A stretch of 64,000 nucleotides of DNA from a virus: positions 32,001 to 96,000 of IMG/VR virus record IMGVR_UViG_3300013131_000024; one strand, given 5' to 3'. The position numbers and the translations under genes are program-made. The notes beneath the pieces are model-generated. The model saw nothing but the letters and a program-made list of their open reading frames with translations, was not told where the DNA came from and ran no database searches. This document shows, one piece after another, positions 17,316 through 33,304 of the stretch (the first letter of the stretch is position 1; each line of letters opens with the position of its first letter).

Positions 17316-17402
17316 GGAGGTGTGTGCCGAGCGGCGAAGGCAAGTGACTGTAAATCACCCACATCAGAAACACCGTAGGTTCGATTCCTACCGCCTCCAC
17401 CA
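17316..17402 (+). tRNA. tRNA-Tyr(GTA)
   Basis: Cloverleaf, long variable arm, encoded CCA. Confidence 0.9.
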
Positions 17403-18078: not shown

Positions 18079-18153
18079 GCACCGTTCGTCTATCGGTTAG
18101 GACACCCGCCTTTCACGCAGGTAAGAGGAGTTCGATTCTCCTACGGTGTACCA
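18079..18153 (+). tRNA. tRNA-Glu(TTC)
   Basis: Cloverleaf, CCA. Confidence 0.9.
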
Positions 18154-18244: not shown

Positions 18245-18343
18245 GCCTCTGTAGCTTAATGGTAAAGAAGGGAGCTTATACCTCCCCAAAGCACAGGCCA
18301 GATAAGCCTGAGTGTGCAGGTTCGAGTCCTGCCAGAGGCACCA
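18245..18343 (+). tRNA. Atypical 99-nt tRNA-Ile-like RNA with two anticodon-like arms (TAT and GAT)
   Basis: Acceptor gcctctg/cagaggc plus ACCA, D and T arms; gggag-cttatac-ctccc and caggc-cagataa-gcctg. Confidence 0.75.
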
Positions 18344-18696: not shown

Positions 18697-18770
18697 GCCC
18701 GGATAGTTAAATGGTATAACGGTCGCTTGATAAGCGATTATTCCAAGTTCAATTCTTGGTCTGGGCACCA
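18697..18770 (+). tRNA. tRNA-Ile(GAT)
   Basis: Cloverleaf, CCA. Confidence 0.9.
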
Positions 18771-19045: not shown

Positions 19046-19120
19046 GGTAATGTAGCATAACGGTAGTGCAGCACCTTCATACGGTGCCCAGTGAAAGTTC
19101 GACTCTTTCCATTACCACCA
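19046..19120 (+). tRNA. tRNA(CAT): elongator Met, or lysidine-type Ile2
   Basis: Cloverleaf, G1-C72 paired, CCA. Confidence 0.85.
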
Positions 19121-21084: not shown

Positions 21085-21156
21085 GCCTCTGCCGATGGAG
21101 CGGTGCCAGGTCTTCTAAACCAGGTTATGGGAGTTCGAATCTCTCCAGAGGCGCCA
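21085..21156 (+). tRNA. tRNA-Arg(TCT), shortened D arm
   Basis: Acceptor and T arms perfect; one anticodon-stem mismatch; CCA. Confidence 0.7.
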
Positions 21157-23928: not shown

Positions 23929-24002
23929 CGCGGGTTATAGAAAAGGCATCTTACCAGTCTCATAAGCTGGAGTTGGGGGTTCGAGTCCCTCACCCGCAAC
24001 CA
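23929..24002 (+). tRNA. Initiator-like tRNA-fMet(CAT)
   Basis: C1:A72 mismatch, CCA; lacks the three consecutive G-C anticodon-stem pairs. Confidence 0.8.
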
Positions 24003-24527: not shown

Positions 24528-24597
24528 GTGGGAGTAGCTCGGTTGGTAGAGCATTTGCCTTTCAAGCAAGATGTCGTGAGTTCAAGTCTCGCAACCA
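24528..24597 (+). pseudogene. Decayed copy of tRNA-Gly(TCC); anticodon now TTC, acceptor 3' strand lost
   Basis: Near-identical to 24695-24770 over D, anticodon and variable regions. Confidence 0.8.
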
Positions 24598-24602
24598 ATT
24601 AG

Positions 24603-31825: not shown

Positions 31826-33304
31826 ATGTTAAAATGTATATTGTTCAATGTAGCCAGCGGAACTAATTTCGCAGGAAATGGTAGATCCGTTGGGGTTTAC
31901 AGAATCTCTCACCATCTTCGAGAAGAAGGTTGGGATGTAGAAGTTATAGATTTTGCTAACGAATGGAGTTTAGAAGATCTTAAATTACTTGCTAAATCAA
32001 GGATGCATGGCGGACTAAAATTTTTTGGATTCAGTCATATGTATTCAATATGGACTGAAACCTTAGAGAAATTTTGTCAATGGATTAAAAAAGAGTATAG
32101 TGACATAGTTCTAATATCTGGCTCTAGTGTATCACCTCAATTTACGTCTATACATTTAGATTTTTATATTCAAGGATTCGGAGAAAACGCTATAACAGCT
32201 TTACTATCATGGTTGTTTGGCAACGGACCTAAACCAATTTTTTCTATATTCAAAGCAAACGGAAAACCATTAATTGCTGCCAACGACAATTATCCTTCAT
32301 ATCCAAGGAGAAACTTAAATGTAATTTACGAAGATAGAGATTTTATCGAATCAGAAGAGTGGTTAGGCATAGAATTTTCTAGAGGATGTAAATTTAGTTG
32401 TGATTTTTGTAATTTTCCAGTATTAGGCGTAAAAGGTGATTATACCAGAGATGCCGAAAATTTTGAAATACAGATAAAAGATGCTTATGATAGATTTGGT
32501 GTTACTAACTATTTGGTATCAGACGAAACATTTAATGATCGTACAGAAAAAATTACTAAATTTGCAGATATAATAGATAAATTAGATTTTAAACCTTGGT
32601 TTAGCGGATTTATACGTCCTGATCTCTTAATTAACAGACCGCAGGACAGAGAAGAACTGCTACGCATGAATTTTTTAGGTCACCATTATGGTATAGAAAG
32701 TTTTAATTACAAAGCAGTTAAATCTATTGGAAAAGGTATGAATCCTGAAAAGGTTAAACAGGGTCTTATAGATGTTAGAAAATATTTTGAAAATAATGGA
32801 ATTAAAAAATACAGAGCTTTATTAACTTTTATCATAGGTCTACCTCATGAAACAAAAGATGACATTGAACGAACCACTAGATGGTTGATAGAAAATTGGC
32901 AAGGACAGTCATGGACTCCCTTCGTTCTGGAGATCCCCGTTGGGGAACTTAATAGAAAAAGTAAGATGAGCATGAACTATGAGAAATATGGCTATAGAAT
33001 TTTTCAAGGAGAGCACAAACATCTAGAGTATAAACAGGCAAGAGTATCTAAAGATTTGTTAATTTGGGAGCATGATCATATGAATTATTTCGATGCCTAT
33101 GATTTATTTTACAAAATGATAGAATCAAGAAATGATTTAAATAATAATTTTACTTTAGCTCCTTGGGATCTAGCTATGATAGGTCTTCCAGGAAACGTCT
33201 ATGATCGACTCATGTTACACAATTCATGTTTACAGGACAAAATTATAGAAGAAAATAGAATAAAATTTATACAAAGATACATAAGGAAAAAATTAGAATG
33301 TTAA
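31826..33304 (+). CDS. Radical SAM enzyme with N-terminal B12-binding-like domain
   Basis: SRGCKFSCDFC, DETFND, GIES, IIGLP. Confidence 0.9.
   Translation: MLKCILFNVASGTNFAGNGRSVGVYRISHHLREEGWDVEVIDFANEWSLEDLKLLAKSRMHGGLKFFGFSHMYSIWTETLEKFCQWIKKEYSDIVLISGSSVSPQFTSIHLDFYIQGFGENAITALLSWLFGNGPKPIFSIFKANGKPLIAANDNYPSYPRRNLNVIYEDRDFIESEEWLGIEFSRGCKFSCDFCNFPVLGVKGDYTRDAENFEIQIKDAYDRFGVTNYLVSDETFNDRTEKITKFADIIDKLDFKPWFSGFIRPDLLINRPQDREELLRMNFLGHHYGIESFNYKAVKSIGKGMNPEKVKQGLIDVRKYFENNGIKKYRALLTFIIGLPHETKDDIERTTRWLIENWQGQSWTPFVLEIPVGELNRKSKMSMNYEKYGYRIFQGEHKHLEYKQARVSKDLLIWEHDHMNYFDAYDLFYKMIESRNDLNNNFTLAPWDLAMIGLPGNVYDRLMLHNSCLQDKIIEENRIKFIQRYIRKKLEC

Follow-up and report, generated by a model that had tools for sequence, protein, structure and literature searches.

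The stretch of viral DNA analysed here, hereafter the window, comprises 64,000 nucleotides (positions 32,001 to 96,000 of IMG/VR record IMGVR_UViG_3300013131_000024) and carries an array of 29 tRNA genes called by ARAGORN between positions 17316 and 24770. Within this array, at 18245-18343 on the plus strand, lies a tRNA gene of 96 nt plus an encoded CCA that contains two anticodon-like arms and that ARAGORN, run on the window, does not call. The Rfam tRNA model RF00005 matches this gene at 18245-18340 over model positions 1-71 of 71, with 59.3 bits and an E-value of 3.6e-11. The score is above the curated gathering threshold of the model, 29 bits, and inside the range of 48-69 bits obtained for the neighbouring tRNAs, and the fold of the gene has a z value of -2.6. 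The viral record as a whole is 110 kb long and only about 31% complete, so the source phage is probably a jumbo phage; lake-water metagenomes contain nearly all of its DNA. The window has a GC content of 36.4%, and AUA is its commonest isoleucine codon, accounting for 41.6% of Ile codons and 32 codons per 1000 in a crude set of open reading frames. A canonical tRNA-Ile(GAU) is already present in the phage (18697-18770, called by ARAGORN), and neither TilS nor a class Ia synthetase was found in the 110-kb record, itself about 31% complete.

The acceptor stem of the two-arm tRNA is formed by GCCUCUG (18245-18251) and CAGAGGC (18333-18339), the latter followed by the discriminator A73 (18340), nearly constant in the family, and by the CCA (18341-18343); the T arm is GCAGG-UUCGAGU-CCUGC (18316-18332). 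The initial annotation had described the acceptor, D and T arms as normal, which holds for the acceptor and T arms but not fully for the D arm. The 5′ strand of the D stem, GCUU (18254-18257), precedes a loop, AAUGGUA (18258-18264), that contains G18 and G19 and is common to most of the family, and it has two alternative 3′ partners. The proximal partner, AAGA (18265-18268), gives three pairs and a G10·A25 mismatch and defines the UAU cloverleaf. The distal partner, AAGC (18289-18292), is a perfect complement of 18254-18257 and defines the GAU cloverleaf, in which the A at 18293 takes position 26. Both anticodon-like arms are present where the initial annotation had placed them, each with a perfect 5-bp stem and a 7-nt loop. 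Arm 1, GGGAG-CUUAUAC-CUCCC (18270-18286), displays U33, the anticodon UAU, A37 and C38, while arm 2, the extra arm, CAGGC-CAGAUAA-GCCUG (18294-18310), displays GAU, A37 and A38 and has, as first described, A in place of U33. In the window's class, arm 2 is preceded by 7 nt and followed by 5 nt, here the spacer AGUGU (18311-18315), which separates it from the T arm by the distance originally given and has the length of a class I variable loop. In the UAU fold, the variable region spans 29 nt (18287-18315) and holds a covarying 5-bp helix, as in class II tRNAs.

The identity set of E. coli-type tRNA-Ile (PMC9976931) is present in part. A73 and U12-A23 are both present and nearly invariant in the family, U12-A23 being formed with either version of the D stem. 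The pairs C4-G69 and C29-G41 are absent, since 4-69 is U-A, a pair that varies widely among relatives, and 29-41 is G-C in both arms. The anticodon-loop set is incomplete in the presumed decoding loop of arm 1, which has U34 and C38, and the full G34 A35 U36 A37 A38 occurs in arm 2 only. Bacterial ANN-decoding tRNAs strictly retain 36-UAA-38 (PMC13276492). Under this rule for t6A37 substrates, arm 1 fails, reading UAC, and arm 2 fits, reading UAA; UAA is likewise found at positions 36-38 in 10 of the 11 other ANN-decoding tRNAs called by ARAGORN in the window.

The only ARAGORN-called ANN decoder of the array without 36-UAA-38 is the tRNA called Met (CAU) at 19046-19120, whose loop, UUCAUAC, has C38 as in arm 1; an elongator Met and a lysidine-type Ile2 are both possible identities for it. 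A second CAU tRNA (23929-24002) has a C1 x A72 mismatch atop its acceptor stem, like bacterial initiator tRNAs. The tRNA-Arg(UCU) at 21085-21156 scores 24.3 bits with the Rfam model, under the 29-bit threshold, and has a shortened, non-canonical D region and an anticodon stem with an A·A mismatch; it carries exactly the acceptor stem of the two-arm tRNA, GCCUCUG/CAGAGGC. A tRNA-like sequence missed by ARAGORN lies at 24528-24600 (Rfam, 44.8 bits). Its anticodon would be UUC (Glu, already represented at 18079), its acceptor stem pairs at 4 of 7 positions, and it may be a duplicate in decay.

A blastn search of GenBank phages finds the same two-loop design in several unrelated phage groups, including Drexlerviridae coliphages, a Klebsiella phage, an Acinetobacter siphovirus and Vibrio phages, one of which, River4, is a member of the Demerecviridae. 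The tRNA is annotated in 3 of 16 GenBank phage records, as tRNA-Ile. In four phages (Acinetobacter phage qsb1, EC3a, Opt-79 and PCEc3, loci L002-L005) the gene stands directly after a tRNA-Arg, which in EC3a is annotated tct, that is, an AGA reader; AGA and AUA would form a recurrent rare-codon pair if the tRNA-Arg of the other three phages is also tct. These four are small phages, with one or two tRNA genes in the records at the two-arm locus. A pattern scan of IMG/VR yielded 105 stretches with 69 distinct sequences; one match of the first such scan (L036) was discarded as a chance match that is not a tRNA. A genome scan yielded at least 120 bacterial loci, including Acidobacteriaceae, Pyrinomonadaceae, Xanthomonadales and Rhodobacterales. 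One locus (L283), in a MAG labelled Methanobacteriota, is a phage-type two-arm UAU tRNA with an encoded CCA on a 9.7-kb contig of this archaeal bin; the contig may be viral or mis-binned.

The family divides into five classes. Class B, the window's own, class C, the type of coliphages and Vibrio phages, and class X, from Xanthomonadales, have in common a linker ending in AAGC or GAGC followed by A, a 5-bp arm 2 and a 5-nt spacer. Class A, of about 88 nt, has a canonical D arm and a short bulged extra arm, and class D has a canonical D arm and an extra arm with other loop endings. In both A and D, the distal strand is absent and a perfect D arm stands beside arm 1. In an alignment of 53 distinct class B, C and X sequences (A1), the acceptor stem, both arms and the T arm covary: the acceptor stem is 99.7% paired with double changes in 7 of 7 pairs, arm 1 is 94.7% paired with double changes at 4 pairs, arm 2 is paired throughout (100%) and shows double changes at 5 of 5 pairs, and the T arm is 99.6% paired, again with double changes. 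The initial annotation had pointed to a double-arm design in phages and to covariation as the places to look; the design proves to be that of a whole family, and both arms covary in the 53 relatives.

The two loops are tied to each other. Both viral scans were anchored on the D loop, so the tested feature was not presupposed. With a fixed UAU loop and no constraint on its distance from the T loop, the variable region measured 21-31 nt in 144 of 146 loci (98 of 100 distinct sequences), counts that, like those below, partly reflect shared ancestry; the two remaining UAU loci with the family D loop are plain class I tRNAs. The arm-2 loop reads YAGAU in 142 of the 144 long-armed members, across 27 different inner-stem versions. 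Loss of GAU among homologues, which the initial annotation would have taken as decisive against its reading, is therefore not what is found. When the CAGAUAA loop was fixed and the anticodon left free, every locus recovered carried UAU (68-69 loci according to two counts, from 68 stretches). The decoding loop was CUUAUAC in 65 of the 68 loci and CUUAUAA in 3, and CUUAUAC is thus conserved like a true anticodon loop. Across classes, arm 2 differs at positions 37 and 38 (AA, UA, GA, GG, UG and others), and the conserved triplet is GAU, the anticodon of the major tRNA-Ile, a coincidence expected once in 64 by chance. Because loops stay constant while the stems vary freely, these comparisons of sequence indicate that both loops are under purifying selection. 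The gene encodes a genuine tRNA that is both conserved and under-annotated, and its second arm is unusual and selected.

The two possible partners of the D-stem 5′ strand generate two alternative cloverleaves. In alignment A1, 74.1% of cells are paired in the proximal D stem, pair 10-25 forming in 12 of 53 sequences, as against 92.9% in the distal stem. Compensatory changes occur at two pairs of the distal stem (G-C to U-A at 10-25′, and U-A, C-G or G-C at 13-22′), and at a third, 12-23′, which is C-G in a Frateuria sequence outside the alignment (L272). In register, the distal strand forms 3.65 of 4 pairs, compared with 0.35-1.6 when shifted, and when the 14 strand combinations were shuffled 10,000 times, the observed pairing was never reached. 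In three loci (L202, L257 and L296) the proximal strand has drifted to mismatch and the distal strand has not. Alignment to RF00005 with Infernal picks the distal D stem together with arm 2 and treats the gene as a GAU tRNA whose D loop carries a 25-nt insertion. In the distal fold, the GAU arm occupies the place of a canonical anticodon arm, with G10-C25, C11-G24, U12-A23, A26 and a 5-nt variable loop. Nearest-neighbour energies, which take no account of tertiary structure, lie within about 3 kcal/mol of each other for the two folds in every type, and for the window type they are -33.3 versus -33.7, a gap of about 0.4 kcal/mol. Minimum-free-energy folding reproduces neither cloverleaf exactly, as is usual for tRNAs. 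The alternative distal pairing in the window's class thus appears real, a conclusion that is well supported but not proven because the independent covariation events are few (about four) and come from related sequences.

It is likely that this RNA is a real, translating AUA tRNA. Arm 1 is probably its decoding arm, mainly because classes A and D, which lack the distal strand, have a perfect D arm beside arm 1; arm 1 also carries U33, and most classes pair it with a perfect canonical D arm. Its UAU anticodon would read the Ile codon AUA, and lysidine made by TilS would be unnecessary. The initial annotation had proposed to split decoding and IleRS recognition between the arms, and of this proposal the decoding role of arm 1 gains support from the many relatives in which a perfect D arm adjoins it, while a role of arm 2 towards IleRS is still conjectural. 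Charging of a UAU anticodon by E. coli IleRS is poor (PMC3575796), bacterial-type IleRS, unlike the eukaryote-type enzyme, relies strongly on t6A37 as a determinant (PMC9976931), and the t6A enzyme TsaBD requires A38 and contacts G10-C25, C11-G24 and U12-A23 (PMC13276492). With its U34, poor for E. coli IleRS, and its C38, which breaks 36-UAA-38, arm 1 therefore fails both enzyme requirements. Arm 2, read here as a selected functional element, displays A33-G34-A35-U36, with the anticodon of the major tRNA-Ile; through its G34 and 36-UAA-38, it would provide bacterial-type IleRS and TsaBD with features missing from the decoding loop. Pairing with the proximal D-stem partner would produce the decoding form, a UAU tRNA whose variable arm is long, and the distal partner would bring the GAU arm to the anticodon position, the form offered to the enzymes. 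S. aureus IleRS clamps the anticodon arm and leaves U33 unread (PMC11685878).

Taken as a whole, the statement that the RNA is an AUA-decoding tRNA-Ile whose GAU arm serves as a handle for IleRS and the t6A enzyme is given a probability of about 0.4, and the handle function of arm 2, considered separately, stands at or slightly below that of the whole, somewhat short of an even bet. A more specific version, in which the RNA is a naturally bistable tRNA that would present the GAU cloverleaf to IleRS (and TsaBD) and read AUA on the ribosome as the UAU cloverleaf, is more doubtful still, with the odds clearly against it. Several observations count against the handle. Position 37 of arm 2 is U or G in about half of the family, so that t6A is impossible there, and 10 genes with U37 in arm 2 sit in genomes with bacterial-type IleRS. 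YAGAU is also kept in the classes that lack the distal strand and hence cannot adopt the GAU cloverleaf, so switching between folds cannot account for the family in general. The variable arm of a class II tRNA with normal geometry is directed away from the site at which a class I synthetase binds the anticodon. Finally, the handle model leaves the invariant A33 without explanation. The GAU arm as an IleRS handle rates low to moderate, and the observation itself rates high.

The genomes of the bacterial carriers provide one test of the handle, since t6A-dependent, bacterial-type IleRS1 hosts would be expected to keep A37 in arm 2 and IleRS2 hosts would not need to. U37 is found in 5 of 5 genomes with IleRS2, the eukaryote-type enzyme. 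The 24 genomes assigned IleRS1, by a zinc-finger hit in a frame of 940-1112 amino acids rather than by a full IleRS model, divide into 14 with A37 and 10 with U37, and 7 more genomes were untypable. One of the 14 (G021, locus L314), also part of the TilS tally, is unpublished. The association of A37 with IleRS type gives a one-sided Fisher p of about 0.025, uncorrected for relatedness. In its strict form, the prediction fails on the 10 of 24 IleRS1 genomes that have U37, and the weak trend is not counted as support. Of 36 carrier genomes, 35 have a TilS match that exceeds the cut-off, and the exception is an archaeal MAG. Replacement of TilS by the two-arm tRNA is thereby ruled out in this sample, and the gene there is an additional AUA reader. 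The description of the tRNA as independent of TilS, made in the initial annotation, holds in the sense that UAU needs no lysidine and not in the sense that its carriers dispense with the enzyme. RNA data come from contigs of two riverine metatranscriptomes. In these, the gene of a close relative, in which arm 1 shows a compensatory change from G-C to C-G, is covered in its uncut form. No joint that removes an arm is among the joints listed for these contigs, from which, as contigs only, transcription, ends and amounts are not inferable.

The strongest competitor of the handle keeps the AUA-reading tRNA-Ile(UAU) and assigns the extra arm to something other than attracting IleRS or TsaBD. Candidate roles are the tuning of ribosome binding against the reading of AUG by U34, the steering or blocking of U34 modification, stability, or a decoy that would draw a tRNA-Ile(GAU)-cleaving nuclease. 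Discrimination is a genuine problem, as the tRNA-Ile(UAU) of Mycoplasma mobile misreads AUG on E. coli ribosomes (PMC3575796), and allo-tRNA genes have been reported near toxin-antitoxin loci (PMC5389517). The variation of arm-2 positions 37 and 38 (A, U, G), which makes the loop less than a full copy of an Ile anticodon loop, the conserved A33 in place of U33, and the U37 loops of IleRS1 hosts all point in the same direction. Against such roles stands the conserved triplet, which is exactly the cognate GAU, and the complete, covarying, canonical anticodon-arm context in which arm 2 lies in the window's class. We also know of no partners for AGAU other than Ile-specific enzymes. We consider another function of the arm somewhat less likely than the handle. 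A second alternative makes the GAU arm the true anticodon arm; the RNA would then be a tRNA-Ile(GAU) whose D loop has gained a 25-nt hairpin, the UAU hairpin serving as an accessory. The Rfam alignment indeed uses the distal D stem and arm 2, and the distal stem is better paired than the proximal one in the window's class. Nevertheless, U33 is always absent from arm 2, the D arm next to arm 1 is perfect in classes A and D, which have no distal strand, CUUAUAC is conserved as a true anticodon loop would be, and the phage already has the canonical tRNA-Ile(GAU) at 18697-18770. In addition, the position of the gene directly after tRNA-Arg in small phages is what a supply of tRNAs for rare codons predicts. 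This alternative is accordingly held to be improbable.

The long variable arm and A73, a LeuRS-type discriminator, raise the question of whether the RNA is a class II-type tRNA charged with Leu or Ser through its long arm and mistranslating AUA. The nematode nev-tRNA-Ile(UAU) is leucylated in vitro (PMC3333845, PMC4300185), and some allo-tRNAs put Ser at Leu codons (PMC5389517). In that report, six allo-tRNA(UAU) variants, converted to CUA amber suppressors, inserted no serine in E. coli. As AUA is the commonest Ile codon of the phage, miscoding would strike every protein, and many lytic phages keep the family, so that charging with Leu or Ser appears very improbable. Excision of one arm with its linker (24-25 nt) from a precursor, which would leave a normal 72-nt tRNA-Ile(UAU) or tRNA-Ile(GAU), is the least probable of the readings considered. 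Removal of either unit would indeed leave a canonical class I cloverleaf, but bulge-helix-bulge and group I features are absent: the Rfam search of the region gave the tRNA and weak, sub-threshold, unrelated matches, with no motif visible. To our knowledge, bacteria do not have a tRNA splicing endonuclease. Classes A and D would yield no clean product, and the uncut form is what appears in the two RNA libraries, with no internal joint among the joints listed, an argument that is weak as it comes from contigs only. The idea of a processed precursor, raised in the initial annotation, thus finds no support. A regulatory or mobile-element-associated tRNA-like RNA with no role in translation has been proposed by Mukai et al. 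for allo-tRNA(UAU) (PMC5389517), and the retention of TilS by carrier bacteria means that the gene is dispensable there for AUA reading. Here, the gene lies within a 29-gene tRNA array of an AUA-rich phage, encodes its CCA and retains the acceptor, the T arm, A73 and all core tertiary positions, and an RNA outside translation is about as improbable as one whose true anticodon is GAU.

The two-arm tRNA can be set beside several known systems. The TilS-independent, class I tRNA-Ile2 of M. mobile has the same UAU read as AUA without lysidine and faces the same problem of IleRS with U34 (PMC3575796), and lactic acid bacteria are also cited for a TilS-independent tRNA-Ile(UAU) (PMC9976931). Such M. 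mobile-type tRNAs have an ordinary 5-nt variable loop and rely on a solution on the enzyme side (Arg865 of M. mobile IleRS), whereas the tRNA described here has an extra GAU arm and its hosts keep TilS. The bacterial tRNA-Ile2, with CAU converted to lysidine by TilS, performs the same task of reading AUA as Ile. It requires a wobble base made by an enzyme, and this base doubles as its IleRS determinant; the two-arm tRNA, in contrast, has U34 and no need for TilS. With the class II tRNAs for Leu, Ser and Tyr, the two-arm tRNA shares a base-paired variable arm between the anticodon and T arms; it differs from them by the conserved 7-nt anticodon-like loop of this arm and, in the window's class, by the competing D-stem strand. 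The nematode nev-tRNA-Ile(UAU) combines the same class II architecture with the Ile UAU anticodon (PMC3333845, PMC4300185), but it is eukaryotic and leucylated in vitro, and the comparison is one of architecture, not of homology.

The closest published relatives may be the (8/4) allo-tRNA(UAU) of Acidobacteria (Mukai et al. 2017, PMC5389517), which are likewise long-armed UAU tRNAs with "five-stem-junction" structures. The window gene differs from the allo-tRNA type, defined by an 8/4 or 9/3 branch and a long D stem with a tetraloop, in having a 7-bp acceptor stem, a 5-bp T stem and a 7-nt D loop with G18G19. Two loci in our collection (L198 and L208) and about 40 other Acidobacteriaceae or Terriglobales loci are nearly identical chromosomal UAU tRNA-like genes with CAGAUUA as the variable-arm loop. 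These Acidobacteriaceae relatives have a long-stem D arm of the allo-tRNA type, with a 4-6-nt loop without G18G19, and an 8/4 or 9/3 acceptor/T branch could not be fitted to them. From their sequences, these CAGAUUA genes would connect the phage family with the published group of allo-tRNA(UAU), a likeness that rests on the type of D arm. The accessible part of PMC5389517 does not mention a GAU-like loop, a phage family or an alternative D stem. More generally, full-text literature searches turned up no account of a GAU-like extra arm, its tie to UAU or an alternative D stem. The genome papers on phage PhiM1 list just "a single tRNA-Ile".

Reading AUA as Ile, and not as Met, is a classic problem, to which the known answers are a lysidine, agmatidine or pseudouridine wobble base, or an adapted IleRS. 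An additional anticodon arm that looks cognate would add a third, located in the tRNA itself. If this is true, aminoacylation identity and decoding would lie on separate, exchangeable modules, and phages could give an AUA reader to any host with bacterial-type IleRS without involving TilS. It would be a rare natural separation of identity elements from decoding elements, useful for the engineering of orthogonal or codon-reassigning tRNAs. The family is widespread and often missed by gene finders, so that the AUA-decoding capacity of phages is under-counted.
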